A stretch of 64,000 bases of DNA, taken from Cenarchaeum sp. (GTDB taxonomy: Archaea; Thermoproteota; Nitrososphaeria; Nitrososphaerales; Nitrosopumilaceae). The number at the start of each line of letters is the position of its first letter. Within the stretch, counting starts at the first letter, position 1. Below the pieces are notes generated by a model. The model ran no database searches. It saw only the letters and a list, made by a program, of their open reading frames with translations, and was not told where the DNA came from. Both the position numbers and the translations under genes were made by a program. The stretch lies in NCBI GenBank assembly GCA_965242695.1, contig CBDESU010000001.1:1824001-1888000 (forward strand). The letters run 5' to 3'. This document shows, one piece after another, positions 29,782-62,778 of the stretch.

Positions 29782-30086
29782 CGGGGCGGCCTCCGCGGGG
29801 CGCCGCGGCCGCGGCGCGCGGCGCACTCCGATGCTCCGCGGGCTCCCGCAAGGGCGCGGCCGCGGCGCGCGGCGCGCGGGCGGGCAGGCGCGGCTGGCAT
29901 CCCCGCGGGCCGCGGCGCGCAGCCCCCCGCCCGCATGCGCGCGCGGGCGGGCAGCCGGCGCGCCGTCCCGAGCAGGGCCATGCCCGGCGCGGAGCGCCCC
30001 GATGTTAAAGCGTATTCGGGGGCCGCCTGCGCGCCGGTTCCGACCGGGATTCCACGAGCCGCGCACGCGAGTCTTGGGACGGCCCG

Positions 30087-31229: not shown

Positions 31230-31313
31230 GGGCAGGGGGCGCGCCGCAATAACTTTAAAGGTTGCGTTGCCTGCCGCCCTTTGCGGCACCATGGCGCCGG
31301 GCGCCCCCGGCCG

Positions 31314-32207
31314 TCACTCGGCGGGCGAGGATCGCCGGCGCCGTCCCTCGACGTGCTCTAGTATCCCCGTGTAGTCTAGCCCCCCGAGGCCGGCCACGAC
31401 GGCCGCGTCGTACGCCTCCTCGGCCATCGACGCGAGCGGCAGGCGCAGCCCCGCCGAGCCGGCCGTCTCGTTGACGGCCCGCAGGTCCTTGCTCAGGTTG
31501 CTCAGCAGGAACGTCGGGTCGTAGACGCCATCGGCCATCTTGTACGCCTTGTTCCGGCTCATGCCGGTGCCAAAGTACGTCGAGTTGAGGACCTCTAGGA
31601 AGTCCTTCGGGTCGACCGAGGAGGCGCGCACCATTGCGATTCCCTCGGATATGGACATTGCAAGGGACGCGATCTGCAGGTTCATTGCGAGCTTTACCGT
31701 CAGGGCCGTCCCCGCCCCGCCGAGGAAGAAGATGCGGCTTGCGGTCTCGCCTAGCGCGCCGCGGTGCGCATCGAAGACGGCCCTCTCGCCGGACGCCATC
31801 ATTACCAGGTCCCCCTTGGCGGCCACGGCCGGGCCGCCCATCACGGGCGTGTCGAGCATTGCAATGCCGGCGGCGGCGCGCAGCCTGGCCGCGATGTCGC
31901 GCGAGTCGGCCGGCGTTATCGTGCTCATGTCGCACACGGCCGGAGTGGCCCCCGACGCGGCGATGCCGCGGGGCCCGAGCACGACGTCCCGGACGGCGGC
32001 CGCATCCTTGACGCATGTAATGACGAGGCGGCACCGCCCGGCGACGTCGGCCGGCGACTCGGCGACGGCGGCTCCGGCCCTTTCCAGGGCGGCCGCCTTT
32101 TCGGCCGTCCGGTTGTGCACGACGACCTTGCGGCCGCGCCCGATCAGGCGCGCCGCGACGGCGGCGCCGAGCATTCCGGTCCCCACCACTCCCACGGCCC
32201 CCTGCAC
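31314..32207 (-). CDS. NAD(P)-dependent beta-hydroxyacid dehydrogenase (3-hydroxyisobutyrate/6PGD family)
   Basis: VGTGMLG, HNRT, DMSTI, DTPVMGG, VKLAMN, KDL. Confidence 0.92.
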   Translation of the reverse strand: MQGAVGVVGTGMLGAAVAARLIGRGRKVVVHNRTAEKAAALERAGAAVAESPADVAGRCRLVITCVKDAAAVRDVVLGPRGIAASGATPAVCDMSTITPADSRDIAARLRAAAGIAMLDTPVMGGPAVAAKGDLVMMASGERAVFDAHRGALGETASRIFFLGGAGTALTVKLAMNLQIASLAMSISEGIAMVRASSVDPKDFLEVLNSTYFGTGMSRNKAYKMADGVYDPTFLLSNLSKDLRAVNETAGSAGLRLPLASMAEEAYDAAVVAGLGGLDYTGILEHVEGRRRRSSPAE

Positions 32208-32257
32208 GTGCGGGCGGCGGGGCGGCGGTATTTCATCCTTGGCGGGGCGGCCCGGCG

Positions 32258-32641
32258 CTACCTCCGCTCCTCGGACTTTACCCGCCACGTGCCGCCGAGC
32301 AGCGGCGCCTCGAGCTCCAGGTGGCCTATCACCCTGTCCCCCCGCCGGACCATCGCGTAGTCGAAGCGGCGCATGCGCAGCACCCGCTCCCTCGGCTTGT
32401 ACCCGCCCTCGATGACGCGCACGCCGAGCCTCTTGCTCGCCTTGACGACGAGCGAGCGGGCGTTCTTCACGTCGCCGACCCACGAGAACATCTCGAACGC
32501 CCCAAAGTTCTCCGTCTCGATGTCGTGCCCGTACAGGCGCGCCTCCAGCCTGTACCGGTGGCGCGCCGCCTGCCCGTTTATCCAGTCGACGACCTCGCGG
32601 CCGTGGCCCCTCTCGGCGCCGAAAGACTCCGAGTCCCTCAT
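32258..32641 (-). CDS. Conserved thaumarchaeal hypothetical protein
   Basis: Coherent 127-aa ORF (VVDWINGQA...ETENFGAFEMFSW...IEGGYKP...FDYAMV). Confidence 0.75.
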   Translation of the reverse strand: MRDSESFGAERGHGREVVDWINGQAARHRYRLEARLYGHDIETENFGAFEMFSWVGDVKNARSLVVKASKRLGVRVIEGGYKPRERVLRMRRFDYAMVRRGDRVIGHLELEAPLLGGTWRVKSEERR

Positions 32642-32728
32642 ACGGGGCCGGCCCCCGCGCCTTGCATGATAACGCTTTCGCGCCAGCACCGCGCTTGGCT
32701 AAAATACGGGGCCGCCGCCCCGCCCGCG

Positions 32729-33106
32729 ATGGGCGGCGTGATCACGGTCGACTGCAGGGACGTAGAGGCCATAAAGCACGAGCTGCTCGTGTACGTCTCG
32801 GACAACGTCGGCGCCATTCCGGCCCTGAAGCTGCACGAGTTTGCGCTCTCGCCGATCGGCGACGAGCCGATCGACGTCTCCGAGGTCGTCACGACCATCA
32901 GGGAGTACCTCGACTCGATAGGCGAGGCGCGCAACTTTGCCATACTGCCCGGCGGCGACACCGTCTCCATCAAGTCGGTCTCGGGCAGGCCCATGGAGCG
33001 GCCCGAGGCGGCCGCGCCGGCCGAGATGTTCTCGTGCCCCCACTGCGGGTTCGTCACGCAGTACGAGGTAGAGTACAACGCGCACAAGCGCATACACTAC
33101 CTGTGA
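32729..33106 (+). CDS. C2H2 zinc-finger protein
   Basis: C-terminal CPHCGF...AHKRIHY. Confidence 0.85.
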   Translation: MGGVITVDCRDVEAIKHELLVYVSDNVGAIPALKLHEFALSPIGDEPIDVSEVVTTIREYLDSIGEARNFAILPGGDTVSIKSVSGRPMERPEAAAPAEMFSCPHCGFVTQYEVEYNAHKRIHYL

Positions 33107-33176
33107 GCGGCGGAGATCCGCTCGCAGGGCGTCCGGCCCAGGCGATGCTTATAAGGAAGGGCTCCGCGCAGGGGCC

Positions 33177-33392
33177 GTGCTAGGGCAGGGCGTCGGCAGG
33201 GGCCGGAGCGGCGGCGCAAAGGTGTACTGCGAGAGGTGCGATGCCGTGTTCCCGTCGAGGTCAGAGTACGAGAGGCACCTTGGCAGGCATGGCGGCGGAG
33301 GGGCAGGCGGCGGCGGATGCGAAGAGTGCCCCCTCGACACGGCCATATCAAAGCTCGTCGGCCTGTTCAGGGGCATGGGCGGCGGCCGCTAG
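33177..33392 (+). CDS. Small C2H2 zinc-finger protein
   Basis: CERCDAVF...ERHLGRH and CEECPLDTAISKL; cttata upstream. Confidence 0.8.
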   Translation: MLGQGVGRGRSGGAKVYCERCDAVFPSRSEYERHLGRHGGGGAGGGGCEECPLDTAISKLVGLFRGMGGGR

Positions 33393-33445
33393 GCGCGCCA
33401 CACTTGGCAAAAATTATTTTAGTGGCGCCGCGGGCCGGCCGCCGT

Positions 33446-34123
33446 ATGGCCGGCAGGGGAGCCAAGATCGGCATCGTGGCGGGCGCCGCGGCGGCCGCAG
33501 TCGTGGCCGCCGCCGCGGCGGCTGCCATGCAGCCGGCCCCCGACTACGAGGGGGTCGACATGGACGCAATGACGGGGACCGTCTCGACGGCCCTGGCATC
33601 CCCCGTGCTGGGCGACCCCGACGCGCCCATCGCGATCGTCGAGTTTGGCGACTACCAGTGCCACCAGTGCTACAACTGGTTCCACAACACAAAGCCGGGC
33701 ATCGAGGCAGAGTACATCGAGACCGGCAGGGCCAGCCTGGTGTTCGTAGACATGGCGTTCCTCGGCAGGGACTCGCCGCGGGCCGCCGAGGCGTCGCACT
33801 GCGCCGGCGACCAGGGCATGTACTGGGAGTACCACGACACGCTGTACAGGCAGCAGGGGCAGAGGATCGACGACGGGTGGGCCGCGGCAGACAGGCTCAG
33901 GCTGTTCGCAGGCAGCATCGGGCTCGACGCGGACCAGTTCGCCGAGTGCCTCGACTCGGGCAAGCACCGCGACAGGGTAAAGTACAACACCGACGAGGCC
34001 CTCAGGCACGGCGTGAGCGGCACGCCTACGTTCATCATCGTCGGCCCCGGCGGGGGCGAGCAGACGATAGTCGGGGCGCAGCCGTACGCCGCGTTCCGCG
34101 ACGCGATAGAGTCGGTGGCGTGA
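33446..34123 (+). CDS. DsbA-family thiol-disulfide oxidoreductase
   Basis: Signal anchor, EFGDYQCHQC, GVSGTPTF, GAQPY. Confidence 0.92.
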   Translation: MAGRGAKIGIVAGAAAAAVVAAAAAAAMQPAPDYEGVDMDAMTGTVSTALASPVLGDPDAPIAIVEFGDYQCHQCYNWFHNTKPGIEAEYIETGRASLVFVDMAFLGRDSPRAAEASHCAGDQGMYWEYHDTLYRQQGQRIDDGWAAADRLRLFAGSIGLDADQFAECLDSGKHRDRVKYNTDEALRHGVSGTPTFIIVGPGGGEQTIVGAQPYAAFRDAIESVA

Positions 34124-34663
34124 TTGCGCGCCGAGCGGCTCGTCTTTGCCGACCCCAGGTACGCGGCGATGGGCGCGGCCGTCTTTGCCGGCATGGCCGT
34201 TCCCCTGCTCGCATTGTCCGGCTTCGTCTTCTTCGAGCCGCGCCTCGCATGGGTGGTGCACCCCGGCGAGGAGGCAAGGCTGGCCCTCGTGGTCGCCCTG
34301 TCGGCCCTGTCGGCCCTTGTAGTCCCGATGAGCGCGTACAGGGCGCTGTCCCTGGGAGGGCCGGGGCGGCGCGGCGGGGGCTCTGGCGGCAGGGCGGCCG
34401 CGGCCGGCTCTGCCGTCGGGGCGGCGGCCGGCGCGTGCGGGTGCGGTCCCGTCGGCCTTGCCCTCTTCTCGGCGTTCGGCGGGGCCGGCGCATCGCTTGC
34501 CGCCGCCCTGACCAACTACGAGGTCCACATACGCCTCGCGTCGATAGCCGTGCTGTGCGTTGCGTACTGGGCCGCGTCGCGGTCGATCGGCGCCGAGTGC
34601 GGCATCGGGCGGCCGGGCGGCGGCCGGGCGGCGGCGGCCAGAGGCGGCAGTCTACAAAGTTAG
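34124..34663 (+). CDS. Membrane protein with a CGC motif, next to the DsbA gene
   Basis: Four hydrophobic segments and GACGCGP; abuts the upstream gene. Confidence 0.75.
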   Translation: MRAERLVFADPRYAAMGAAVFAGMAVPLLALSGFVFFEPRLAWVVHPGEEARLALVVALSALSALVVPMSAYRALSLGGPGRRGGGSGGRAAAAGSAVGAAAGACGCGPVGLALFSAFGGAGASLAAALTNYEVHIRLASIAVLCVAYWAASRSIGAECGIGRPGGGRAAAARGGSLQS

Positions 34664-34808
34664 ACCGAGGTGTCATAATCCTTCAACACCCATCCTAATT
34701 AGCCGACGATCGGGCGGTTGGGCGTTGAAGATCTACATCCCGGTCCGACCGAGCCGAAGATCGTCCGATGCGGACGAGGAAGACGCAGAGCAGGACGGCA
34801 GGTAGCCC

Positions 34809-35786
34809 CTAGTGGCTGCGCGGTTGCGGCGCCCCGGGCGCGCCTAGCCGCGCGTACGAGCCGTCCGGAGCCGGCGGCAGGCCCGGGGCGCCCGGCCACA
34901 GCAGGGATGCGAGGATCTCTACGCCGGCGACCACCCGTATGCTAGGCTTGCTAAAGTAGCCGCCGGCGTCGACCGCGTACACGCGGCCGGACCGCGCGGC
35001 CAGCGTGCCGCGCCAGCGCGGGTCGGCGGCAAGTGGCGAGCCCGGTGCCGAGTACTCGGCGGCGGCCCGGTCCGCGCCAAAGCCGCACGGCATGACGACG
35101 GCCACGTCCGGCGCGCTTTCCGCAGCCTCCTTGACAGACATGGGGCGGGAGTGCTCGCCTGCCGAGCTGACCAGATTCACGCCGGCGGCGGCCTCTACCA
35201 TCTCGGGCACCCAGTGGCCTGCCGTGTACGGCGGGTCGATCCACTCTAGCGCCAGGGCGCGCGGCCTCTCCTTTCCGCTGGCGGCGGCCGCGGCGGCCGC
35301 GCGGGCCGCCCCCAGGCGCGACTCGAGCGATGCCCGCAGGCGCCGCCCCTCCCTGCCCCTGCCTAGCAGCGACGCGACCCCCGTTACGCTGTCGAGTATG
35401 CCGCGGATATCGTGCGGGTCGATCGACAGGAGCTCGGCCGAGCCGCCTGCCGCCTCCAAGGCCCTGTGCGCCTGCGCCGCATGCGGGGCGCACGCCTCGC
35501 ACGTGTCCTGGCATATGATCAGGTCCGGGTCGGCCCTGCGCACCGCATCCTCGTCGAGCTCGAACAGGTCGTGGCCGGCGCGGCGCGCGGCGCGCACGGC
35601 GGCATCGATCTCCGCGCCGTTCATGGCCGAAAAGTCTACCGCCGGGGAGATCACGCGCGGCACCGGCGGCAGGCCGGCCGGCAGCTCGCACTCGTGCGTG
35701 ATGCCGCGCAGCGACCCGGCGGCGCCGAGCTCGCAGATGAGATCCGTGGCGCTCGGCAGGAGCGAGACGACGCGCTTGAAGTGCAT
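34809..35786 (-). CDS. Cobalamin/iron-siderophore ABC substrate-binding protein (BtuF-like)
   Basis: RVVSLLPSAT, THEC, QDTCEAC, LEWIDP...GHWVPEMV, MPCGF. Confidence 0.88.
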   Translation of the reverse strand: MHFKRVVSLLPSATDLICELGAAGSLRGITHECELPAGLPPVPRVISPAVDFSAMNGAEIDAAVRAARRAGHDLFELDEDAVRRADPDLIICQDTCEACAPHAAQAHRALEAAGGSAELLSIDPHDIRGILDSVTGVASLLGRGREGRRLRASLESRLGAARAAAAAAASGKERPRALALEWIDPPYTAGHWVPEMVEAAAGVNLVSSAGEHSRPMSVKEAAESAPDVAVVMPCGFGADRAAAEYSAPGSPLAADPRWRGTLAARSGRVYAVDAGGYFSKPSIRVVAGVEILASLLWPGAPGLPPAPDGSYARLGAPGAPQPRSH

Positions 35787-35840
35787 GCCGCGGGGCCGGC
35801 GCGCGCAGAAATAAGCGTGCCGGGCCCCGCAGTCGGCGCG

Positions 35841-38800
35841 CTACCCGTCCCTGTTCTCGCCGGTGCGGTACGAGACGAGCGTCCCGAGCTGGTGCGCTAT
35901 CCTGGCCCGCTGCGGCACCGTAAATCCGAGGATGCCCAGCACCTCCCCATCCAGCCGCTCCCTGTCAAGGTCGCCGCAGTAGGCATTCCATGCGGCGCCG
36001 AGCCTGCCTACGTCGCGGGAGTCCATCCTGCCAAGGTCCGGCACCGGCGCCTCCGCCAGGTCGGCGATCAGCACCTGCAGGGCCCCGCCGCCTGCCACGT
36101 GCCCGCTCTTCTCCAAGTGCAGCGCAAACCAAGAGGATGCAAGGTACGCGAGGAGCGCGTCGGTGTGCTCGGGCCGGCTCGGCGTAAAGCCCGCAAAGTT
36201 GTCCCTCGCGTAGAAGCGGCCGTTGTTCCTGTACGCCTTGAGGCGCCTGTCGATGAAGCGGCCTAGGAAGACGGCCGGCGGGCCGTCCCGCAGGCCGAGC
36301 GAGTACCACAGGTCCCTCCCCCTGAGCGATGCAAGATCGGCAATGCCCCTCTCCTTGCGCGAGGATCCCTTCTTCGGCACGACGGCGGCCGCCTCGGCAT
36401 CCTCGATGTACCGCAGGACTCCGGCGCCGCCGACGGCCCTTGCGAGGCGGCCCTTTGGAAGATCGACGCTCAGTAGGTGCTCGCTCGCCCTCTGGCCCCC
36501 GAGGCAGCCGTCCGCAATGCCGTCGGACAGCACCGGCCGCCTGAACCGGGCCGGGATCGAGTACTCTCGAACAGCCTCGCGCGTGAGTACAAAGAACTTG
36601 TTGCGACCTGTCTTGATCCCGCTCTCTAGCTTACCGACCTTTCTCAACGGTACGGTCGGGACGCGTATATGCGAAGGGGGGGGGGGGCGCAAAGTGAGCA
36701 AACCAGTTGCCCGGCACGGTCGTCCTCTGGAGCTTCCTAGCCACCATATGCTGCGTCCAGTCGTCAAATGCGCGGATCCCTGGGATCGCCGCAAGGAGTA
36801 TCTGGTGGCCATCGCAGGACCTCGCTTTGGTGAGGAGCGTGACCACCGTCTTGATGTCGGCGTCGTCAAAGACGTTGAAGAGGGGACGCAACAGGGCGTC
36901 GATTCTACAGTTGTCAAGCATGGTGCGCTGCAGCTGCAACCCATAGTCATGATTGAGCCACCCGTCGCTTGCGATAAATCCCAGGCGGCCACCATTCGCT
37001 AGGCTTGCAAGCGAATGGTAGTAGAAGTAGCTGCTCAGGTCGCTTTTACGTGGTATCTCAAAGTCCGATGCAATCTCTAGCACCGAGCCACCTGGAAGCG
37101 CCAGCGAATTCTTGTCTGCAAGGCCTTCCTGCCGCACGTATGGTGGGTTTCCAATTATAATGTCGAATCCCTGTGCCGCCTGGAACGTGTACGGGAACAA
37201 TGAGGGCCATCCACCATCGGGGATGTCTTTGACGCTGTCCCGCACAACTATGTTCCGAGACAAGTCGGGCAGGCGCTCGAACAGTGACGCCGTCATCAGG
37301 CACAGCGACAGGCGCGTTATCTCAACCGACTGAGGGTTCACGTCTATTCCGTACAGGTTGTTGCGCACTATCTCGAGGGGGGAGGCGTCCGCAATGTCCG
37401 ATTCTAACGTGCCGCTTGCTAGCCCTCCGTGGGCGTTCCTGTGTGCTCGGATTTCTCTGTATATGTCAAGCAGGGTAGTAGCCGCTTCGATCAGAAATGC
37501 TCCCGATCCACACGCAGGATCAAGTATCCGGATGTTGCGCAGCCGCTCCTCAAGGCTTGCAATGTTATCTGCATACTCTGCCACAAGGGAGGCAGGATCC
37601 GCCGCGCTGCCCAACTTCGATAGCCATGGTATAATCGTGCTACGGCATATGTGACGCGTCACGTATGCAGGGGTGTAGAACACCCCCTCACGCTTACGCC
37701 GCGACGAGCCGATGCCAAGTAGGTGCTCGATTTCATGTATGGACTGTTCAAATATGTGGCCAAGTATAGTGACGCGTATCTGGCTCTTGAAGTCATATGA
37801 GGACATTGCGAGTAAGTTTTTGATGATTGGGTTGAGATCGTCGTGCCGCCGGACCGCTGCCTCTATCTTCACCTTGAACTCCCACGAACGACGCCGCTTT
37901 TCAGAGTTAAATTCGTCGAAGAATCCGGGAGGGCGCAGGTCCATTATCCGGGCTCCCCGGGGGAGTGGTTCTACAAATAGACCTCCATTGAACCCGAATA
38001 TTTGGGGCGAGCGTGATCCCTTGTCAAATCCTGGAAACAGTTCATCTGTCAGGTATGACCACACCCGTTTTGAACGGTCGCCTAGTCGCCCGTTCAGCAC
38101 GTCGATCACTCCGTCTGCAAACATATCCGAGTCGCGTACCAAGCCCGAATCTTGGGCGAAGAATATAAAGATAAGCCTGTTGAGCAGCGTCTGTGCTGCC
38201 GCGACGGCGGCACCTCGTTTCACTCCAGACGTTTCGAACTCCCGGATCAACATAAGGCGTGTCTTTCCATACAGATCGTAAAACTCGTCCGTGAGTGCCT
38301 TGTCTTCGTTTATCGACTTTGTGTGAGCACGCTCGACAAAGCCGGATCCAATGTTCGCCTTCCCGAACACGCCTATGAACTCTCGCAGTTTTTTAGGGTT
38401 GTTCCTTACACTCTCAAAGTCGAACTTATAATACTTTGAATAACCATGTTTTTTAGTTATTAAAATAAATTTGCGGTAGTTAGTACATATGCCGTATTCA
38501 AGGTCGATCTTTCCCATGTAGTCCCAAGCCTGCTTGATGGGGGTCGAATGTTCTCCTTCCTTGTGGTGTTGCCGGGCGAAAAGATCGCGCGTCTGTGTGC
38601 CTTTTACTTCAAAACATCCGAGCGGGCGGCGTTGTGAATCGTAAAATTGGAACTCGACGTTGTCCGATTCATATTTGATGTCATCCACCTTGTATCCGAG
38701 CAGTCTATCGAGTATGCACGACATGAAGATGGGGTAGTTGGACACCTCCTTTTGTAGACGGTCTTCTTTGAGCAACGTGAGCCACTCGGACGCCGCGTCG

Positions 38801-38874
38801 TGCTGGTCCCTTGTGATCTTCACGTCAGCGCACATGTTCTCGAGTGTCGCCGGTGAGAAGAGATCATCGGACAT
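35841..38874 (-). CDS. Type IIG (Eco57I-like) restriction-modification enzyme, copy 1, frameshifted at a C12 tract
   Basis: N-terminal nuclease motif CFEVKG, ILDPACGSGAFL, IIGNPPY. The frame stops at 36631; the specificity domain (GIKTGRNKFFVL...GGGALQ) continues in another frame to 35841. AT-richer than flanks. Confidence 0.88.
36676..36687. repeat. G12 (C12 on coding strand) homopolymer at the frameshift of RM copy 1
   Basis: gcgaa-G12-cgcaaa; a C11 tract would fuse the two frames. Confidence 0.9.
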
Positions 38875-39097
38875 ACAAGTCACCACGCCGTGGTGCCATA
38901 GATGGCCAAGGAAAGCCGCTGCCACATCCACCGCGCAACCCTCCACGGTGCAGGGGCCTGCAAGGCAGGGCGCCTTATCCAGGCGCGGTGGCGTCGGTAG
39001 GTGTACATAGCGATCACGGCGCCGCTGACGAGTAGCCCCGTTAAATCCCTTTCAAGGCAACGCGGCGTTTCTTATACGCCCCGCCCGGGAGGGGGCC

Positions 39098-40270
39098 GTG
39101 GAAGAGTCCGTTCGCATCCGCAGGGACATCGAGGCGAGGTGGAACGAGCACCTGTCCAGGCACGGCGCCCTGTTCTCGTCGGATGCGGTGAGCGGTACGA
39201 CCCCGCCGACCGTCTTCGTCGGCTCGCACGGCTACCCCCGCCTGCGCGTGGGCCCCATGGTGCCGCCCGTCCACGGCGACACGTCCATGATGGACAGCCC
39301 GGAGCGGTGGTCCGGCCGCACCCTGGCCGAGATCGTCTCGGACAGGCTTCGGATGGTGCGCGGCGTGCGCACGGTGCGGGCCGACGCGCCGGCGGACCGC
39401 TACGTCGAGGACCTGCAGGGGCTGGCCATGTCCGGCGGGCCGGCAGACTCTGACCTGCGGCTCGACGCGCCGGCGGCCCCGGTGGCCCTTGCCGACGGGT
39501 ACTCGGCGCCGTTCGGCCCCGTCGGCAGCGTCAAGAGCGCGTCGTACTCGGGGCTGTCGGCCCCGCCGAGGGCCGTCGAGCGGGCGTACTACGACACCGA
39601 CAGGGGCGCCGCCGGCGCCGTCATGGACCTGTACGAGGCGGGCATCGAGGTGTCTAGGATACACCGGCTCCTGTCCATCGGCATGCTCGGCCGGAAGAAG
39701 AGGAGGAGGCTCGTGCCGACCCGCTGGAGCATTGCGGCGACCGACTCTGCCATATCCGAGGCGCTGTCGCGGCGCATACTGGACTATCCGCTGATCGACT
39801 CGCATATGGTGTTCCACCACGAGCACCTGGGCAACCTCTTCTCGGTCGTGCTGTTCCCGAGCCGGTGGATGTTCGAGATGATCGAGGCGTGGTACGCCGC
39901 CGACGGGACGCCGGGGTTCGGGGCGGACCGCGAGGGTGCGCGCGGCATGGGCCACAGGCAGCCGGCCATTGCGGGGGCGTACTTTGCCGGCAGGCTCGCC
40001 GTCGCCGAGCACCTAGAGCGCATCCAGGCGCAGGCCGGCGCGCTAGTCCTGCGCGAGATAAGGCCCGAGTACGCGGTGCCCGTGGGCGTGTGGCAGGTGA
40101 GGGAGGGCGTGCGGGCCGCGATGGCCGGAGGGGGCGCGGCTGCGCCCTCCCTCGGCGAGGCCGTCGGGGCGGCGTGCTCCCCGATGAGCATCTCGAAGGG
40201 CGAGTGGCTCGCGCACGGGCAGGTGATGCAGATGGCCCGTCAGCGGACGCTTGCCGACTTTTTCGGCTAG
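39098..40270 (+). CDS. nreA: Archaeal DNA repair protein NreA
   Basis: PPTVFVGSHGYP, RRLVPTRWSIAATD, PVGVWQVRE, C-terminal PIP box QRTLADFF. Confidence 0.93.
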   Translation: MEESVRIRRDIEARWNEHLSRHGALFSSDAVSGTTPPTVFVGSHGYPRLRVGPMVPPVHGDTSMMDSPERWSGRTLAEIVSDRLRMVRGVRTVRADAPADRYVEDLQGLAMSGGPADSDLRLDAPAAPVALADGYSAPFGPVGSVKSASYSGLSAPPRAVERAYYDTDRGAAGAVMDLYEAGIEVSRIHRLLSIGMLGRKKRRRLVPTRWSIAATDSAISEALSRRILDYPLIDSHMVFHHEHLGNLFSVVLFPSRWMFEMIEAWYAADGTPGFGADREGARGMGHRQPAIAGAYFAGRLAVAEHLERIQAQAGALVLREIRPEYAVPVGVWQVREGVRAAMAGGGAAAPSLGEAVGAACSPMSISKGEWLAHGQVMQMARQRTLADFFG

Positions 40271-40404
40271 GCGGCAGAGGCGCGGCGGCCGGGCGCCCCG
40301 CCGCCGCAACCGGCAGTCCCGCCGGCAGGGGAAGGCGGCGGCCGCCGGCAAGTCCAGCCCCGCGCATCCCCGTTTGCATCCCGCTGTCGCGGCGCTCTCC
40401 GCAT

Positions 40405-40974
40405 CTACAGAATGACAAAGTTGAGGGATGCAAAGTCTGGATCGCTGGCCAAGGCGCTAAACTGCCGGTCCCGGGTGCAAAAATTTTTCACTCTGTAGTC
40501 CCGAGCCGCAAGCGCGTGCATCATGTCGAGGATGCCAAGGCTCCTGTAGATGATCCCCATTTTGCCGTGCGGCTCGAAGCGGCCCCCGTGCCTGATCAGC
40601 ATGCGCAGGGCCAGGGTTGCGTACTGTCCTGCATTATTCGAAGGGTTGCGAATTCGAACTTTGCCCATGTCAGACAAGAGCGAGAGCCGACGTAGAAAGA
40701 GTGCCACAGCCTTCTCCGCCACTGCCCATGCCGCCTGTAGGTCCGGCGCATTGCTGCCGCACACCCTAGCCAGATCTCTCGCCGTTTCGCGCCTAGTCAC
40801 TTGGATTACTTCGCTGATGACAAAATCGGACACGTCGACCGTCCTTTTTCCGTCATGCAGGTCGTCGAACAGGGGGCGGCAGGCATCGTAGTGCGGATCC
40901 TTCCTCCCCAGCGAGAATGCGGTCCACACATTGGAGTCCCAGTAGTCGTCGCTACGACCCTCTTCCGCGCACAG
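40405..40974 (-). CDS. PIN-domain (VapC-like) toxin
   Basis: YWDSNVW, SDFVISEV, LGILDMMHALAA, FCTRDRQF; frame open upstream to CTG 40974, preceded by GGAGATGATCC. Confidence 0.8.
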   Translation of the reverse strand: MCAEEGRSDDYWDSNVWTAFSLGRKDPHYDACRPLFDDLHDGKRTVDVSDFVISEVIQVTRRETARDLARVCGSNAPDLQAAWAVAEKAVALFLRRLSLLSDMGKVRIRNPSNNAGQYATLALRMLIRHGGRFEPHGKMGIIYRSLGILDMMHALAARDYRVKNFCTRDRQFSALASDPDFASLNFVIL

Positions 40975-41281
40975 ACCGGATCATCTCCAACGAGTCGCAG
41001 TCGGAACCAAAGTACTTGCTGAGGCAGCCATCAAACTCTGCCGGCTCTTTGAGATCCTCGGGGCCCATGCCCACCAAGGCGAGAAGGTACTCGCGCATGG
41101 CCTTGTTCTCCATCTCCACGTACGGCCGCTCCCACTCGCGCTGCGCCGCCACCAACCTTCTCAGCTCGTCCTTCGGTATCTCCGCGGAGCGGTCAATGAC
41201 CTCTCGGTTGAAGCGGGCGACCGAGTCGTGGTACTCTTGGGGCAGGGGGTCGATGTACACGGGCTCATTGCGTACTCCCAT
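40952..41281 (-). CDS. Putative antitoxin, copy A (overlaps the PIN gene)
   Basis: 109 aa ending DSLEMIRSVR (VapB-like tail); cttaata about 25 nt upstream. Confidence 0.7.
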   Translation of the reverse strand: MGVRNEPVYIDPLPQEYHDSVARFNREVIDRSAEIPKDELRRLVAAQREWERPYVEMENKAMREYLLALVGMGPEDLKEPAEFDGCLSKYFGSDCDSLEMIRSVRGRGS

Positions 41282-41394
41282 GAAAGGCCGGCGCATGGGC
41301 CTCATATTAAGATTCCACCGCTAGGCCGAAGTCTACAGGGGCGGCGGGGCATAGACAGTAGCGGAGGCGGCGCGCTGGCGTCCCCGGCGCACCG

Positions 41395-41724
41395 CTACGA
41401 CCCTCTTCCGCGCACAGCCCTGACCATCTCCACCGAGTCGCAATCGGAACCAAAGTACCTGCTGAGAAATCCTGGGCCATCGGGCGGCTTCTTGAACTCC
41501 TCGGGGTCTATGCCCACTAGGGCGGCAAGGTACTCGCGCATGGCCTTGTTCTCCATCTGCATGTACGGCCACCTCCGCTTGCGCTCCGCCTCCATCAGCC
41601 TTTCCAATTCGTCCTTTGGTATCTCCGCGGAGCGGTCAATGACCTCTCGGTTGAAGCGGGCGACCGAGTCGTGGTACTCTTGGGGCAGGGGGTCGATGTA
41701 CACGGGCTCATTGCGTACTCCCAT
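41395..41724 (-). CDS. Putative antitoxin, copy B
   Basis: Paralog of copy A at a 443-bp period, with its own cttaata box. Confidence 0.7.
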   Translation of the reverse strand: MGVRNEPVYIDPLPQEYHDSVARFNREVIDRSAEIPKDELERLMEAERKRRWPYMQMENKAMREYLAALVGIDPEEFKKPPDGPGFLSRYFGSDCDSVEMVRAVRGRGS

Positions 41725-41847
41725 GAAAGGCCGGCGCATGGGCCTCATATTAAGATTCCACCGCTAGGCCGAAGTCTACAGGGGCGGCGGGGCATAGACA
41801 GTAGCGGAGGCGGCGCGCTGGCGCCGGCAAGTGCCCCCGGCGCACCG

Positions 41848-42180
41848 CTACGGCCCTCTTCCGCGCACAGACCTGATCATCTCCAACGAGTCGCAGTCGG
41901 AACCAAAGTACTTGGCAAGGAACCCCGGGCCCCCGAGTGGTTTTTTGAACTCCTCGGGATCTATGCCCGCCAAGGCGGCAAGGTACTCGCGCATGGCCTT
42001 GTTCTCCATCTCCACGTACGGCCGCTCCCACTCGCGCTGCGCCGCCACCAGCCTTCTCAGCTCGTCCTTTGGTATCTCCGCGGAGCGGTCAATGACCTCT
42101 CGGTTGAAGCGGGCGACCGAGTCGTGATACTCTTGGGGCAGGGGGTCGACGTACACTGCCTTATCATTGCGTACTCCCAT
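41848..42180 (-). CDS. Putative antitoxin, copy C
   Basis: Third paralog; upstream box altered to cttgata. Confidence 0.7.
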   Translation of the reverse strand: MGVRNDKAVYVDPLPQEYHDSVARFNREVIDRSAEIPKDELRRLVAAQREWERPYVEMENKAMREYLAALAGIDPEEFKKPLGGPGFLAKYFGSDCDSLEMIRSVRGRGP

Positions 42181-42311
42181 GAAAGGCCGGCGCAGGGGGC
42201 CCCATATCAAGATTCCGTCGCCGGGCAAAAGCGTGGCACGGGGCGGCGCAGGACGGCGCCGTGGGCGCGGCCGTCGAGGCGGTCGCCAGTGGCCCCGTCT
42301 GCAGGCCGATG

Positions 42312-42962
42312 CTATCCGGCGCCGGCCGACAGGGCGGCCCGCGCAAAGTGCACCCCGAACGGCTGGCAGTACACGACGGCCGTGTCGTACCCGTCAACCC
42401 CGAGGCCCGTAATGTCGTAGTTCTGATCGCCCCTGCTCCCCTTTAGCTTTGCGACGTGCACGCCGCCGTCGACGTCGCCGCCCCTTGTCAGGTACACGCG
42501 CAGGTCGGGCCCGTTAGTGACCTCGAAATCCTCAAACCGCAGGTATACGGCCCCGCCGGCCAAGACCACCTTGGCCGTCCCCTCCGCGCGGTGGCCGGCC
42601 ACCCCCTCGAACTGCCCCGTCCTTGTGACGCGCGCCTCTTCTTCCGGCCCCGCAGCGCCGGAGCCGGGCATCCCCTCGCCCGGGGCGTCCGTCGCCGCGC
42701 GCGCGGCGGCCTCCATCACCATGGATACGGTCCGCGCCGGCATGCGCCCTGCCAGCGGCGCCCTCTCGCCGTCGGGCATCGACGAGAACTCTTCGAGCGT
42801 CAGCCCGGCGCGCACCTCGCCGAGTGCCGCTTCCAGGCCCGCAGCGCCTGCGGGCGGCGGCTCGTCGACGACCGTATCGTAGAACAGGGGCGATGCAAGC
42901 GCGGCCGCGGCAACGGCCGCAGCAGCGGCCGCCCCCGCCGCAGCCCACAGTGCGCGCCGCAT
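42312..42962 (-). CDS. DM13-domain secreted protein
   Basis: Signal peptide; GHRAEGTA, LRFEDFEVTNGPDLRVYL, LKGSRGDQNY, VVYCQPFGVHF. Confidence 0.9.
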   Translation of the reverse strand: MRRALWAAAGAAAAAAVAAAALASPLFYDTVVDEPPPAGAAGLEAALGEVRAGLTLEEFSSMPDGERAPLAGRMPARTVSMVMEAAARAATDAPGEGMPGSGAAGPEEEARVTRTGQFEGVAGHRAEGTAKVVLAGGAVYLRFEDFEVTNGPDLRVYLTRGGDVDGGVHVAKLKGSRGDQNYDITGLGVDGYDTAVVYCQPFGVHFARAALSAGAG

Positions 42963-43007
42963 GCGGCGCGACGCCGCTGCCCCCGATATAGACCGTCCGG
43001 CGGGGAT

Positions 43008-45338
43008 CTATACGCCCGGCCCCGAGAGGTAGGTCGGCTTGTCCTCCCTGTACCCCATCTCGTGCGCCTTTTCCCGCAGCCTGCTCGCCTCGTCCGGGCG
43101 GCCCGTCTGTGCCAGGCAAGCGGCCTTGATCTCGTACGTGTCGGGAAACCACGGGACAAACCGGATCGCATCGTCGCAGGCCTTTATGGCGTCGGCCAGC
43201 CGGCCCATCCCGACGAGTATGCGGGCCCTCCCGACGTACATGAACCCCATGTCCGGCTCGATCCGGTTGGCCGCATCGCACGACTCGAGTGCATCTTCGT
43301 TGCGTCCCATGTCGTGCAGCACGAGCGCCCTCATGTAGTGCATGTGCGCGTTTGACGAGTTGAGCGCGATCGCCCTGTCAAGCGACTCGACGGCCTCGAC
43401 ATGGCGGCCGAGCGCCTGCAGGACGGATCCCCTCGCATAGTGCGCGTGGGCGTACGACGGCTCGGCCTCGACGGCCTCGTCCGCGGCCCGGAGCGCATCG
43501 TCGTAGCGGCCTGCCGTCGTGAGCGACATTGCCTTCGATGCGAGTATGTCGCCGTCCGGCCCGACGAGCCGCGCCTCCTCGTCGCATTCTTCGGCCGACT
43601 CCTCAAGCCGGCCCAGCCCGAGCAGGGCATGCCTCCTTGCCGTATGCCCGTCGACGTAGGACGGATCGATCTCGATCGCCCTGTCGGCCGACCGGAGCGC
43701 ATCGCCGTGACTCTTCTCCCCGACGGCCAGCGCGTAGCCGCGCGAGGCGTGCGCGACGGCCGACTCGGGGTCGAGCTCGATCGCCCTGTCCGCCGATGCG
43801 ACGGCCTCTTCGTGGCGGTCGAGCGAGGCGAGCGACCTGGACCGCCAGGCGTGCGCATCCGCAAGGCTCGGGTCAAGCCGGATGGCATCGTCGAGCGCCG
43901 CAATGGCCTCTTCGTGGCGGTTCGACAGGGACAGCGAGGCGCCCGCCTGGCAGCGCAGCGCGGGGCGGTCAGAGGCCGCGGCAGAGGCCGAGTCAAAGGT
44001 CTTGGACAGGTGCCCGGGTGAGGATGCGGGCGCGCCCCCGCGGCCGAGCTTGGCGAGCATCCCGTCCCTCATTGCAGCGGCGCTTGCAAACCCCGGCTCT
44101 ATCTCGAGGGCCCTCTCGAACGCGCCGAGCGCATCCTCGTGGCGGCCGAGCGAGTCGAGTATCAGGCCCTTGAGGTGCCACCCCGACGAGCGCTCCGGCT
44201 CGCACCCAATGGCGCCGCCCACTGGCGCAAGCGCATCCTCGTGGCGGCCGAGCATGTGCAGGGAGGCGGCCTTTCCAAAGTGGGCAAGGTAGTCGCCGGC
44301 GTTTGCCGCTATCGCCTCGTCGAACGATGCGATCGCATCCTCGTGGCGCCCCATCCCCATGAGCGCATCGCCCCTCTCTCGCAGCGCGTTCGGCTCGCGG
44401 CAGCCGAGGCGGATCGCCCGGTCGAGCGACTCGAACGCCTCCCTGCCGCCGCGGCCGGCGCCGAGCAGTGCGTTGCCGAGCCTGTACAGGTGGTACGCCT
44501 CGGTGATGGTTCCGGCCGCCTCGTCGGCCGCGGCGGCCATGACGTCGCCCCCGCCCCCCTCTTTCCTTCCTGCCCGAGGCGCGGCGCTCCGGCGCCGCCC
44601 CGCCTCCCTGATCTCCCCTATGGCCTCGTCGTGGCGCCCCAGGCGGGACAGCGACGAGGCGCGCGCGTAGCGCGCGTGCAGGTTGCCAGGATACCCGCGA
44701 ATCGCCTTGCCGAGCGCCTCGGCCGCCTCGGCGTGCCGTCCCAGTTCGGCAAGGGCAGAGCCCATCCCCTGGTGGGCCAGGTGCGTGCCCGGGTCGAGCC
44801 GTATGGCTCGGCCGAACGACTTTATGGCGTCCCAGTGGCGCCCTAGGGCGAACAGCGCGTTGCCCCTCCCGCAGTAGACGTCGGCGCTTTTGCGGCCGAG
44901 CCGTATCGCGCGGGCAAACGCCCTCTGCGATGCGTCGTGCCGGCCCATTCCGTACAGCACAAACCCCCTTCCAAAGTGCGCCTCGTGCATGCCGGGGTCG
45001 ATCTTGATCGCCCTGCGGTACTCGGCCAGGGCGCCCCTCTGGTCCCCGAGCCCGATCATGATGCGGGCTAGCGAGCACCGCGACGCGTAGCCGCCTGGAT
45101 CGGCCCCCGCGCCCCTGGCGATCTCCTCGCGGGCCTCCCGCACGCGGCCGAGCGCGATCAGGGCGGCGCACCTTCCGCTGCGCGCATCCTTGTATTCCGG
45201 ATCGAGGCGGATCGCCTCGTCGAACGCCTCTAGCGCCTCGGCGTTCCGCCCGCCCTTCAGGAGGGCCCCGGCCCTCTTGCAGTGATCAGCAGCCGCGCCG
45301 CCGCCCTTCTCCGGCCCGCCGCTGCCGCGCCCCGCCAT
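43008..45338 (-). CDS. Long TPR-repeat protein
   Basis: Numerous 34-aa TPR units in blocks separated by Gly/Ala linkers. Confidence 0.9.
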   Translation of the reverse strand: MAGRGSGGPEKGGGAAADHCKRAGALLKGGRNAEALEAFDEAIRLDPEYKDARSGRCAALIALGRVREAREEIARGAGADPGGYASRCSLARIMIGLGDQRGALAEYRRAIKIDPGMHEAHFGRGFVLYGMGRHDASQRAFARAIRLGRKSADVYCGRGNALFALGRHWDAIKSFGRAIRLDPGTHLAHQGMGSALAELGRHAEAAEALGKAIRGYPGNLHARYARASSLSRLGRHDEAIGEIREAGRRRSAAPRAGRKEGGGGDVMAAAADEAAGTITEAYHLYRLGNALLGAGRGGREAFESLDRAIRLGCREPNALRERGDALMGMGRHEDAIASFDEAIAANAGDYLAHFGKAASLHMLGRHEDALAPVGGAIGCEPERSSGWHLKGLILDSLGRHEDALGAFERALEIEPGFASAAAMRDGMLAKLGRGGAPASSPGHLSKTFDSASAAASDRPALRCQAGASLSLSNRHEEAIAALDDAIRLDPSLADAHAWRSRSLASLDRHEEAVASADRAIELDPESAVAHASRGYALAVGEKSHGDALRSADRAIEIDPSYVDGHTARRHALLGLGRLEESAEECDEEARLVGPDGDILASKAMSLTTAGRYDDALRAADEAVEAEPSYAHAHYARGSVLQALGRHVEAVESLDRAIALNSSNAHMHYMRALVLHDMGRNEDALESCDAANRIEPDMGFMYVGRARILVGMGRLADAIKACDDAIRFVPWFPDTYEIKAACLAQTGRPDEASRLREKAHEMGYREDKPTYLSGPGV

Positions 45339-59687: not shown

Positions 59688-62600
59688 TTAGGTGCCGCCG
59701 CCCGCACCCTGTTTTGACGCGCGCATGCGCCTCTCTGTGAGGCGGCCGAGTTCGGCCCTGACAGCTCCCATCTGCCGCGCCATGCCTAGCGCCGCAAAGA
59801 CGGCTCTGTCGAGCCTTTTTCGATCCAACGTATCGCAGTATTCCGACCACGCGCCCTCCATCTTTTGCATCGCCTTCTGTGGAAGCTTGTCAAAGTCGGG
59901 CACCCGAGTCTTTGCCAGCACGTGGTTGTCTATGCGCAGGGCACCCCCGCCGAGGGGCGCAGCATTTTTTTCCATGTCTAGGGCAAAGAGTGAGGATGTA
60001 AAGTAGGCAAGGAATCCGTTCGTATGCGTTTTGACATCAGGAGTAAAATGGAGGTAAGTGTCAAGGGCTAGGTACGATCCACGCCCTTGTCCGCCCGCTC
60101 CATTCTCATACACCCTGATCGTTCGGTCGTTGATTCTGCTTATGAAGATCGGGGGCGGGGGAGGGGCCGGCAGAGAGTACCACGGATTTCTGTTTGCAAT
60201 AGTCGGCAGTTTGGGCAACAGGACACGGGTAGAACGTCCCCTCTTTTTTGGCAGAACTGTCATCCCTTCTCCGCGCTCAATATACTTTTTTACAAGGCGT
60301 CCGTGCGTAGTTTTTGCTAGCACACCTTTGCTATCCTGGACGACAAGGATGTATCGTACGGCATGCCTCACCTCAAGGCGTGGCAGCTCGCCGCCCGTCA
60401 CTACCGGTCGCAAATAGTCCGAATGTATCTTGTGATCTCTAGCGGCGTCTCGCGTCATGACAAAAAAGTCGTTACAGCCAGTCCCTATTCCACGCTTCAA
60501 GTGCCCTGTTGCATCAAGGCGTGTTGTGGGAAAAGGGGGGGGGGCGGTGGTCGGCCCATCAAAATATAGAGACCAGTCCTTCCCTACAAGGTTTGTCCCG
60601 GAGACGCGGGCGGCAATATCCAAGGATGGCGCCGCAAAATCCAAGTCGGATCCAACGTTGGCAAACAGGATGTCCCTATTTTCATCAGGAGATGTTCTCA
60701 TGAGTAATACTATTACGGTGGTTATGAGGGCATCGGAGAACACCTTGAATCTCGGAGATACCAATTCTTCTATTTGAGAATTGGAAAGAAGCATCTGCCT
60801 CAATGGTTCGCCGTATTTGGCGCGGAGCCAATTGTCGCTGGAGATAAACCCGAGCAGCCCTCCCTTGCACAAACGTCCCAGCGAGTGGTAGTAGAAATAT
60901 GTGCTCAGGTCGGCTGTTTTTGGAATGGCAAAGTCGCCCGGAAGTGTAAGCGGCATCATGTCCGGCAGTGTGGCCATCGCACGTTTAGTCGGGCCAGTTA
61001 GCAACTCCTGGCGCACGAACGGCGGATTGCCAATGATGACTGAAAACCCCGGGTTTTCACCTGCGAATACTGTAGGAAATGTCCGCTCCCAGTCTAGCCC
61101 ACCTTGATCAGTGTCCACCACAACGCTGTTGCCAACCACAATGTTGTTTGACAAGTCAGGAAGTTTTTCGCCATCGGCCGCTGTCAAGAGAAACAGGGAG
61201 AGGCGCGCAATGTCGACTGACTGAGGGTTTATGTCTATTCCGTATATACAGTTGCGAACAATCTCAGAAATACGCCCTGCATCTATAGACTGATCGAGGC
61301 CGTTGTCTTTTTCGTCGCCATTGTATTTATGGCGTACAATTTCTTCGTGGATCTTGATCAGTGTCCTAGCCGCACGTATCAGAAATGCACCCGACCCGCA
61401 TGCAGGATCAAGTATTCTTATGCGGTTCATGCGGTCATGAAGTCCATCAAGGTCACCGTTATACTCTTTTACAAGTCCAGCAGGATCCAGTGCATTCCCG
61501 CTCGGTGAAAGATATCTTATGATCGTGCGACTGCAAATGTACTCGGTCACATACTCTGGTGTGTAGAATATGCCCTCCCGCTTACGCGTCACGGCACTTC
61601 CATCTAGCAAAATATCCAGATCTGTTACTGAATTTTCGAATATATGGCCCAGTATATCGACACGTATTTGACTTTGAAAGTCGTACGAGGATATCTTTAG
61701 GAGATTGCCAATCACAGGGTTCAGGTTATTCACGCTACGCACCGCCTCTGCGATACGTGGTTTATACTCCCAAGAGTCGGCACCGTGACGGCTAGGATCT
61801 GGGCCCAGTTCGTCAAAAAATTCTTTTTTTCTTTTGTCGGGGAAGAATGCGAGCTTTTGTAATGACTTATCAAAGAGGCCACCGTTGAACGCAGTTATGT
61901 AAGGATCTGCTTGCCCAGTCTCGAATGCGGTGAACAGCTCTTCGACAATGTAGTTCCACACGCGTCGCGTGTTGGTCTTGACGTTGCCTTTTAGTATGCC
62001 CACAACGTCGTCGTCAAACATTCCGTCTTTCACCAAATTTGCATCTTCTGCGAAGAATACAAACATAAGGCGGTTAAGAAAAGTCTGCGCTGTAGAAACT
62101 GCATCGTTGTTTACAAGTCCCTTGTCCTTGAATTCATGTATAAGCATTAAGCGCGTCCTACTGTACAACTTGTAAAACTCGTCGGTGAGGCCCCGATCAG
62201 CGTCGGCGGACCTAGACTGTGCGACATATGGAAAGCCAGCTGCTAGTGATTGTATAGAGAATATCCCCAAAAATTCACGCAGTGCCTCAGAATTGTGCCG
62301 GATGGATTGGAAGTCAAAAATGTGATATTTTGTTAGTGCAAATTTTTTGGTAATCAGTACAAAATCCCTGTAGTTGGTGCATATGCCATATTCGGCGTTT
62401 GTACTCCCCATGTAATTCCATGTCTGCTTGACGGGAGTCTCATGTTCTTTTTTTTCTTTGTGCTGCGGCGTAAAGAGGTTTTTTGTAGACGTGCCTTTTA
62501 CCTCGATGCAGGCCACCGTCTTGCCCTTTTCAGCATAGGTAAAATCAACAAAATTCTCTTCGTGCTTTATCTGATCCTCATTATAACCAAGCAAGTCTAC

Positions 62601-62765
62601 GAGTATGATCTTAAAAAAGTTTATGTAGTTTTTCTTTTCGTTTTCTAATAGACCCTCGTCAAGCATTTTTAGCCATTTTTCGGCAGCGGAACGCTGCCGA
62701 GAGTTGACCACTGTGTTAGCACACATTTCCTTGACGGTGTGCGGATCCAACAGTCTCTCAATCAC
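59688..62765 (-). CDS. Type IIG (Eco57I-like) restriction-modification enzyme, copy 2, intact
   Basis: VDF...CIEVKG nuclease, ILDPACGSGAFL, IIGNPPF, specificity domain GIGTGCNDFFV...GGGALR; colinear paralog of copy 1; clearly AT-richer. Confidence 0.92.
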   Translation of the reverse strand: MIERLLDPHTVKEMCANTVVNSRQRSAAEKWLKMLDEGLLENEKKNYINFFKIILVDLLGYNEDQIKHEENFVDFTYAEKGKTVACIEVKGTSTKNLFTPQHKEKKEHETPVKQTWNYMGSTNAEYGICTNYRDFVLITKKFALTKYHIFDFQSIRHNSEALREFLGIFSIQSLAAGFPYVAQSRSADADRGLTDEFYKLYSRTRLMLIHEFKDKGLVNNDAVSTAQTFLNRLMFVFFAEDANLVKDGMFDDDVVGILKGNVKTNTRRVWNYIVEELFTAFETGQADPYITAFNGGLFDKSLQKLAFFPDKRKKEFFDELGPDPSRHGADSWEYKPRIAEAVRSVNNLNPVIGNLLKISSYDFQSQIRVDILGHIFENSVTDLDILLDGSAVTRKREGIFYTPEYVTEYICSRTIIRYLSPSGNALDPAGLVKEYNGDLDGLHDRMNRIRILDPACGSGAFLIRAARTLIKIHEEIVRHKYNGDEKDNGLDQSIDAGRISEIVRNCIYGIDINPQSVDIARLSLFLLTAADGEKLPDLSNNIVVGNSVVVDTDQGGLDWERTFPTVFAGENPGFSVIIGNPPFVRQELLTGPTKRAMATLPDMMPLTLPGDFAIPKTADLSTYFYYHSLGRLCKGGLLGFISSDNWLRAKYGEPLRQMLLSNSQIEELVSPRFKVFSDALITTVIVLLMRTSPDENRDILFANVGSDLDFAAPSLDIAARVSGTNLVGKDWSLYFDGPTTAPPPFPTTRLDATGHLKRGIGTGCNDFFVMTRDAARDHKIHSDYLRPVVTGGELPRLEVRHAVRYILVVQDSKGVLAKTTHGRLVKKYIERGEGMTVLPKKRGRSTRVLLPKLPTIANRNPWYSLPAPPPPPIFISRINDRTIRVYENGAGGQGRGSYLALDTYLHFTPDVKTHTNGFLAYFTSSLFALDMEKNAAPLGGGALRIDNHVLAKTRVPDFDKLPQKAMQKMEGAWSEYCDTLDRKRLDRAVFAALGMARQMGAVRAELGRLTERRMRASKQGAGGGT
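60535..60544. repeat. G10 (C10 on coding strand) homopolymer in RM copy 2, in frame
   Basis: aaaa-G10-cggtgg encodes APPPF at the same domain junction as the copy 1 tract. Confidence 0.9.
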
Positions 62766-62770
62766 TTTAG

Positions 62771-62778
62771 TCACCTCC
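62771..62778 (-). promoter_or_regulatory. Shine-Dalgarno GGAGGTGA for RM copy 2
   Basis: Minus strand reads aaGGAGGTGActaaaGTG; 5-nt spacer to GTG 62765. Confidence 0.75.

Follow-up and report, generated by a model that had tools for sequence, protein, structure and literature searches.

The window analysed here, a stretch of 64,000 nucleotides (nt) from a Cenarchaeum species (GenBank assembly GCA_965242695.1, contig CBDESU010000001.1, positions 1,824,001 to 1,888,000 of the forward strand), comes from a sponge-associated, uncultured ammonia-oxidising archaeon and harbours two paralogous genes, copy 1 and copy 2, both predicted to encode restriction-modification (RM) enzymes of Type IIG and both containing a run of cytosines (poly-C tract) between the parts coding for the methylase and the specificity domain. 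In the assembly the tract of copy 1 separates the gene into two frames. The features of the two genes are as follows, with X1, X2 and X5 denoting public sequencing runs:

35841..38874, minus strand: Type IIG RM gene copy 1, 3034 nt as assembled, 3033 nt and 1010 amino acids (aa) at C11
36676..36687, minus strand: poly-C tract of copy 1, C12 on the coding strand (G12 on the plus strand); 12 in the reference and X1, 11 in X2 and X5
36631..38874, minus strand: upstream frame of copy 1 with nuclease, putative helical spacer and a methylase domain of the gamma class (N6-adenine), 747 aa
38599..38661, minus strand: putative PD-(D/E)XK nuclease motif of copy 1, NVEF...CFEVKG, of the form E-X14-E-X-K
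37495..37521, minus strand: methylase motif I (S-adenosylmethionine binding) of copy 1, DPACGSGAF
37135..37152, minus strand: methylase motif IV (catalytic NPPY) of copy 1, GNPPYV
35841..36674, minus strand: downstream (+1) frame of copy 1 with predicted target-recognition domain and C-terminal helices, 277 aa and stop
59688..62774, minus strand: intact paralog, copy 2, 1028 aa, 49% identical to copy 1
60535..60544, minus strand: poly-C tract of copy 2, C10, in frame, coding for prolines (PPP) 745-747 in a 10-residue coil between methylase and specificity domain

On the plus strand positions 36676-36687 consist of exactly 12 G, that is C12 on the coding minus strand. This run begins at nt 2188 of copy 1, at 72% of the gene length, in the linker joining the methylase to the specificity domain, where it moves the frame by +1. 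The upstream open frame, 36631..38946(-), reads ...PGNWFAHFA-PPPP, GNWFAHFAPPPP, and is followed by 14 out-of-frame codons and a stop; homologs start with MSDDLFSPATL, which places the start of copy 1 at the ATG at 38874 and gives a product of 747 aa. The downstream open frame, 35841..36995(-), lies in the +1 frame and reads ...PPPPSHIRVPTVPL..., and its segment PPPPSHIRVPTVPLRKVGKLESGIKTGRNKFFVL aligns with the post-junction region in all five full-length paralogs. When one C is removed, the two frames are by arithmetic fused from 38874 to 35841 into 3033 nt coding for 1010 aa, so that a single unit in the tract decides whether a full-length or a truncated product results, the sequence on either side being otherwise intact. 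In copy 2 the G10 of the plus strand at 60535-60544 codes for A-PPP-F, aligned with the junction of copy 1. The specificity domain is accordingly fused at the C-terminus in copy 2 and in the C11 allele of copy 1, and out of frame in the assembled C12 allele. The initial annotation of the locus had placed the loss of the specificity domain exactly at the C12 run, had expected C11 to restore a protein of about 1010 aa and had pointed to a paralog with an in-frame C10 at the homologous junction; sequence, frames and alignment position (the last within the open frame 59688..62774) bear out all three.

No sign of decay was found in copy 1, the 277 downstream codons being free of stops and all motifs being kept. 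An alignment of the downstream frame with the C-terminus of P0015, a protein of 1010 aa found in other assemblies, revealed 261 identical residues out of 273 (96%). When copy 1 was compared with its ortholog in G004, the genome of a sister species, the ratio of nonsynonymous to synonymous substitution rates (dN/dS) was 0.09 over the 729 codons of the N-terminal part and 0.26 over the 277 codons of the specificity part.

The length of the copy 1 tract was followed across public samples. For this locus 13 public runs were listed, all as Logan contigs and with no RNA run named, five of them containing half or more of its words, and the contigs of four runs were aligned to positions 26700-46699 (20 kb) of the window with the following result:

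X1: a single contig, 33658-36877, depth 93, no other letters and no gaps; tract length 12
X2 (another sample of the study of X1): a contig of depth 477 with one G missing at 36676, and a second contig that stops at the first G; tract length 11
X5 (another study and host): a contig, 35333-37098, depth 7.5, no other letters and one gap, at the tract; tract length 11
X4: a dominant strain ~89% identical, in which the tract region is shorter by a net 4 nt; this restores the frame, and the tract itself is unreadable

In X2 the eight listed pieces, amounting to 16.5 kb, contain no other letters at all. The OFF length (12) and the ON length (11) occur in populations that show no other difference in the listed pieces. 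A uniform C11 in copy 1 had been named beforehand as the refuting outcome; the contigs show both 11 and 12. The dominant strain of X4, with 129 other letters in 1156, was considered as a possible G004, and this was ruled out, as the specificity part of G004 is 78.5% identical at the nucleotide level. A further X4 contig with a depth of ~17.5 (254.7 minus 237.2) covers the site with no deletion listed, suggesting a length of 12 in a second sample.

By domain content and predicted fold, both copies are MmeI/Eco57I-like Type IIG enzymes. The Pfam families Eco57I, N6_Mtase and MmeI_Mtase match both proteins well above their cut-offs, Eco57I with 97.2 and 104.4 bits in the two copies (cut-off 25.3) and, in copy 1, N6_Mtase with 60 and MmeI_Mtase with 54 bits. 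The helical spacer, MmeI_hel, reaches 30.0 bits in copy 2 but 22.6 in copy 1, the latter below the cut-off of 27. In the 277-aa downstream piece of copy 1 no Pfam family was found by hmmscan; full-length homologs carry precomputed PF22837 or PF12950. Both copies retain DPACGSGAF (motif I) and GNPPYV/GNPPFV (motif IV), which are invariant in 47 aligned sequences. The putative nuclease motif has the form E-X14-E-V-K in copy 1 and D-X13-E-V-K in copy 2, its residues E91 and K93 (numbering of P0003) being nearly invariant among the 47 aligned homologs, and this E/D...E-V-K pattern we take to be that of a PD-(D/E)XK nuclease.

To describe the fold, an AlphaFold model of copy 2 was used (predicted local distance difference test 84.5, predicted template modelling score 0.75). 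Foldseek matched it to the methylase-plus-specificity enzymes CamA (E 1.5e-22) and BseCI, to the Type IIG/IIL enzymes BpuSI (E 1.7e-20), MmeI (E 2.1e-19) and DrdV, and also to PglX of bacteriophage exclusion (BREX) systems, PglX/BrxX being among the matches. The alignments with BpuSI and MmeI span 905-1115 columns (905 for MmeI, with template modelling scores of 0.51/0.68), and the matches to CamA, BseCI and MmeI take in the specificity region. In the model long helices are seen at 181-286, and prolines 745-747 lie inside a coil, 740-749, that leads from the last methylase helix to the first strand of the specificity domain. Since the residues coded by the tract form a coil between helix and strand, a changed number of prolines would be expected to be tolerated. 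The domain order of MmeI, BpuSI and DrdV (PDB 5hr4, 3s1s and 7lo5) is the one proposed here, that is nuclease, helical spacer, gamma-class methylase, specificity domain and C-terminal helices. Their sequence identity to copy 2 is only 11-16%, and phmmer reaches MmeI at just E 7e-5. To our knowledge no homopolymer switch is known in these enzymes.

From these results it appears fairly probable that copy 1, a Type IIG gene of an archaeon, is controlled by a hypermutable poly-C tract acting as a contingency switch, which is OFF in the assembly and ON in other populations. Both the C12 and the C10 run have the length at which G/C runs are slip-prone in known cases (8-9 nt or more). Replication strand slippage, the presumed cause, would alter the run of copy 1 by one base, presumably in a reversible manner. 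At C11 (or C8 or C14) the ribosome would read through and give a 1010-aa enzyme able to recognise, methylate and cut DNA, and at C12 or C10 translation would stop just past the methylase, leaving a protein that lacks the DNA-recognition domain. Restriction and methylation would then be lost together, and because the loss would be a joint one, switching OFF would be safe. The assembly and X1 would represent the OFF state and the X2 and X5 populations the ON state, and copy 2 would be the same device, now ON at C10. Candidate benefits are bet-hedging against viruses, the cost of self-restriction and altered methylation, any of which may apply.

The initial annotation had read the locus in the same way, and the core of that reading, a slippage-prone tract that switches a Type IIG gene with copy 1 OFF, is supported by the anatomy, the intact halves and the C11 contigs. 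It fares less well in its argument from selection, according to which a tract in both copies suggests selection for switching. In favour of a functional switch, the two paralogs are only 49% identical and have the tract in the same linker coil. The argument from selection is undercut by the number of tracts elsewhere in the genome, by tractless orthologs in G004 and by paralogs without the tract, all described below.

The implication that tracts are special to these two genes does not hold, as the window contains three more G/C runs of at least 9 nt (C12 at 1635-1646, C14 at 4627-4640 and G9 at 12737-12745) and the genome (3.89 Mb, 68% GC, two contigs, 96% complete) 252 in all. In the window, runs of ten G/C give 12 overlapping matches (4 tracts) against 0.48 expected, and none of 100 dinucleotide shuffles reached 12. 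When counted by length over the genome, G/C runs number 1914 (6 nt), 265 (7), 46 (8), 29 (9), 53 (10), 54 (11), 47 (12), 30 (13) and 13 (14), with a tail to 34, a bimodal distribution with a trough at 8-9 and a second mode at 10-12. The two other large genomes of the genus resemble it in this respect, overlapping 11-mer matches numbering 464 in G002 and 552 in G004 versus 33 in G001, 12 in G003 and 28 in G017, which are three smaller relatives. A genome-wide process thus makes or keeps G/C tracts, and the presence of a tract in both paralogs does not of itself demonstrate selection for switching.

As to placement, 177 of the 252 tracts are intergenic in a rough gene call, 72 of these between divergent genes, and the 75 'coding' tracts lie mostly within doubtful filler open reading frames; these counts are rough, as the custom gene caller used missed copy 2 with its atypical codon use and fills intergenic DNA with such filler frames. 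The strand of a tract follows the chromosome arm (211 of 252 overall, 156 of 177 among the intergenic ones) and is independent of the nearest gene, the sense strand being C in 81 cases and G in 77. The orientation switches near 1.0 Mb (G000:C1) and 0.67 Mb (G000:C2), close to turning points of the GC skew, and this arm-linked orientation looks like a replication-linked asymmetry. Together the two contigs behave like a single two-armed circle. The tracts of copy 1 and copy 2 both oppose the prevailing orientation of their arm, which favours a functional switch. A MutS_V domain was not found in the genome at its 96% completeness, and post-replicative repair of slippage may therefore be weak; NucS_C gave a marginal match (23.3 bits) inside a 515-aa frame.

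Homologs of the two genes show how the junction has fared elsewhere. The metagenomic homologs P0052, the P0076 cluster (6 of 6 members) and the P0093 and P0118 clusters end exactly at the same junction, P0052 terminating ...NWNALFQPPPLNRPRP, after QPPP. The P0076 and P0093/P0118 clusters lack NPPY (RPPY, RSPY and SPPR instead) and look like decayed relics. On sequence comparison, the junction between methylase and specificity domain is a recurrent breaking point with permanent loss as one outcome. P0137 (748 aa, of the P0015 cluster) was considered as an OFF variant and rejected, as it diverges after ...GVPT with no proline run and probably reflects a contig end or join. Two members of the P0076 cluster have a run of 8 glycines where the other four have 5, which may reflect an in-frame change in a G tract. 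A full-length protein identical to copy 1 was not found in a collection of 5.8 billion proteins, the nearest being 80% identical, and exact-flank pattern scans of metagenome contigs gave 0 matches for each of the two tracts.

Several observations weigh against copy 1 being a switch. The initial annotation had proposed to look for the tract in further paralogs and related genomes, and this search went against it: four of the six paralogs of the gene in this genome are without the tract and have the linker in mixed codons. The same is true of both orthologs in G004, that of copy 1 (78% identical, an intact 1098-aa frame) having the linker NWFSHFAGPAPRLAVPTVPL and that of copy 2 (76% identical) the linker NWSLYFDAPMIKAQFPTT, neither with a run, so the tract is, as judged from sequence, young and patchy. 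Among closer relatives of copy 2, P0060 (80% identical) reads SAPPPFP at the linker, and P0066 (88% identical) reads TPSSFP, with TPSSF in place of APPPF. Homologs cut off at the junction with degenerate motifs mean that OFF can be the first step of decay, and general tract-making together with tolerance at the coil could place tracts in RM genes without any selection. Concerning the samples, contigs drop minor variants, so that the lengths are contig-level values in which within-sample mixture, rate and reversibility are not visible; the depth of X5 is just 7.5, X1 is possibly the assembly's own sample, and a platform-specific homopolymer bias could mimic the difference between 12 and 11, the library types of X1, X2 and X5 being unrecorded.

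Some of these observations agree with a non-adaptive frameshift, in which a run typical of the genome sits in a tolerant coil and an extra C has inactivated a dispensable defence gene, copy 1 being an early pseudogene. The orientation of the 252 tracts by arm and not by gene (211 of 252; 81 versus 77) fits this, as do the tractless G004 orthologs, the P0076 (6 of 6) and P0093/P0118 proteins that end at the junction with NPPY lost, and the redundancy that follows from six paralogs. We nevertheless regard it as unlikely: there is no visible decay (277 stop-free codons, 96% identity to a full-length homolog, motifs kept), and both states occur with no other difference in the listed pieces, so the change must be very recent or recurrent. 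In addition, a tract occupies this 10-residue coil in the second paralog as well, and the two tracts both oppose the orientation of their arm.

Somewhat less likely again is a homopolymer miscall, with a true length of C11 everywhere, an intact gene and an artefactual C12 in the assembly and X1. In its favour, long-read platforms are prone to errors in long G/C runs, X1 possibly consists of the data behind the assembly, and 11 is the length in X2 and in X5, the two sequencing runs in which the tract can be read directly and departs from the reference. Against this, the Logan k-mer contigs of X1, which are independent of the assembler, show 12 (depth 93) and list no other length; X2, with 11 at depth 477, comes from the same study, within which any systematic bias would then have to vary. 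The X4 contig of depth ~17.5 that lacks a listed deletion also suggests, by inference from depths, a second sample with 12. Programmed recoding, by which the C12 allele would still give a full-length product through RNA polymerase slippage or ribosomal frameshifting and be constitutively or leakily ON, is very improbable, since C11 alleles exist in the DNA, even though bacterial RNA polymerases are known to slip on long homopolymers and a 12-nt run is long enough for it.

Returning to copy 1 as a contingency switch, its two parts also differ in composition. The N-terminal nuclease-methylase part has 53% GC, with 63% at third codon positions (GC3), and the specificity part 67% GC with a GC3 of 84.5%; a sliding GC profile climbs across the junction region with a break near 36676-36900. 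P0015 shares 96% with copy 1 in the specificity part and only 67% in the N-terminal part. Given the shift in composition and this uneven identity, the junction also looks like a joint for exchange of specificity domains, and copy 1 is probably a mosaic whose domains were exchanged at the linker.

Only ten of the genomic tracts lie deep within coding sequence that scores well on both sides, three of the ten out of frame; copy 2 escaped this screen on account of its unusual codon use. Those in defence-like genes, apart from copy 1, are:

L014, G000:C1:632221-632231: Mrr_cat_2 nuclease and ResIII helicase gene, 11-nt run in frame
L017, G000:C1:1497099-1497110: AAA_23 ATPase gene, 12-nt run out of frame near codon 90
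L013, G000:C1:391906-391914: helicase-like gene, 9-nt run out of frame

The others include copy 1, a TPR gene, a methyltransferase/glycosyltransferase gene and unknowns. A broader proposal, which we put forward tentatively and hold to be less probable than not, is that members of the genus with large genomes and a sponge-associated life have ~250 hypermutable, replication-oriented tracts, mostly at promoters, with some inside defence genes (the two Type IIG genes, the Mrr-helicase and the AAA_23 ATPase), that together would form a contingency repertoire in which the RM tracts double as joints for specificity exchange. If true, this would be a repertoire of contingency loci about ten times that of Campylobacter, in a domain of life with no described case. 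The genome-wide tract system is a more novel lead than the RM switch itself.

The closest known system is, by analogy, Cj0031, a Type IIG enzyme of Campylobacter jejuni NCTC11168. According to Anjum et al. (2016; PMC4889913), the gene is divided into cj0031/cj0032 by a G9 at nt 2573 of 3732, ON/OFF methylation and phenotypes are demonstrated, the tract is missing from other homologues, the specificity region varies between alleles and C. jejuni genomes have 12-29 G/C runs each. The likeness lies in the single-chain nuclease-methylase with a G/C run ~70% along the gene (here nt 2188 of 3033) and in the patchiness of the tract, which only some alleles possess, as among the relatives of copies 1 and 2. 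The difference is that Cj0031, with its demonstrated methylation states, belongs to a bacterium and has a 9-nt run, whereas the present case concerns a predicted switch in an archaeon of 68% GC with 11-12 nt and ~250 runs. A second parallel is pglX of the Pgl system of Streptomyces coelicolor (BREX-like), reported to vary via a G tract. Both cases concern a high-GC organism and a G/C run in the gene of a large defence methylase, the two methylases being alike in fold class, but pglX is part of a multi-gene BREX-type system in a bacterium. In phasevarions, with Type III mod and Type I hsd genes in Haemophilus, Neisseria and Helicobacter, repeat slippage inside the methylase gene toggles methylation in a fraction of the population, according to the reviews PMC12707154 and PMC11868660. 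These are multi-subunit Type I/III systems of host-adapted bacteria with a demonstrated regulon, in contrast to the Type IIG gene described here.

The initial annotation knew of no described thaumarchaeal case, and a search of the literature, in which genome papers on sponge Thaumarchaeota were covered as a listing, likewise found no archaeal phase-variable RM gene. In a 2025 review (PMC11868660) the distribution of phase variation in archaea is named as future work, and PMC2831843 offers only statistics of short homopolymers in 18 archaeal genomes. A preprint (bioRxiv 10.1101/2025.10.21.683753) calls archaeal contingency loci known, which rests on a simple-repeat paper from 1987. Repeat slippage as a means of phase variation is commonly regarded as a hallmark of bacteria adapted to hosts, and in the present case an uncultured archaeal sponge symbiont has ON and OFF alleles of a predicted defence enzyme with the homopolymer as the sole difference in the listed pieces. 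If switching holds at the level of reads, anti-virus bet-hedging, and perhaps hedging of methylation patterns, would extend to Archaea and to animal symbionts; if confirmed, the two RM tracts and about 250 others would make up a testable set of loci. The case also cautions annotators that a methylase gene which looks 'split' in a genome of this kind may be a working switch.

Copies 1 and 2 have housekeeping genes on their flanks (a DsbA-like thioredoxin, a binding protein, archaeal Nre and an ABC transporter), and both genes therefore appear to be solitary single-gene systems, an arrangement that is usual for Type IIG. When the remaining relatives were analysed, two shorter paralogs (C1:241639-244158 and C1:43717-46164) and three loci of G004 (L030, L032 and L034) matched only from ~residue 190 on, and in these five no nuclease N-terminus was detectable. 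L030 shows a weak N-terminal match in another frame, and L032 has a C10 run ~220 nt upstream of the matched region. With copy 2 as query, 24 pattern matches were obtained in a collection of genome contigs, none of which was confirmed.

Some further repeats were noted. Beside the G004 ortholog of copy 1, the open frame at L022 27-902 (+) consists mostly of GRAG repeats, coded by a 12-nt tandem repeat. The locus L019 (G000:C2:1024211-1024286) contains a tandem pair of 64-nt units with near-identical flanks, one with C10 and the other with C12 (sense), in an open frame with no Pfam match. In the window, a giant gene of ~13.5 kb (rough call) starts at 1461 (-) and extends ~12 kb past the window start, and the C12 at 1635-1646 is located ~175 nt upstream of this start, in the divergent gap shared with a gene at 1939 (+).

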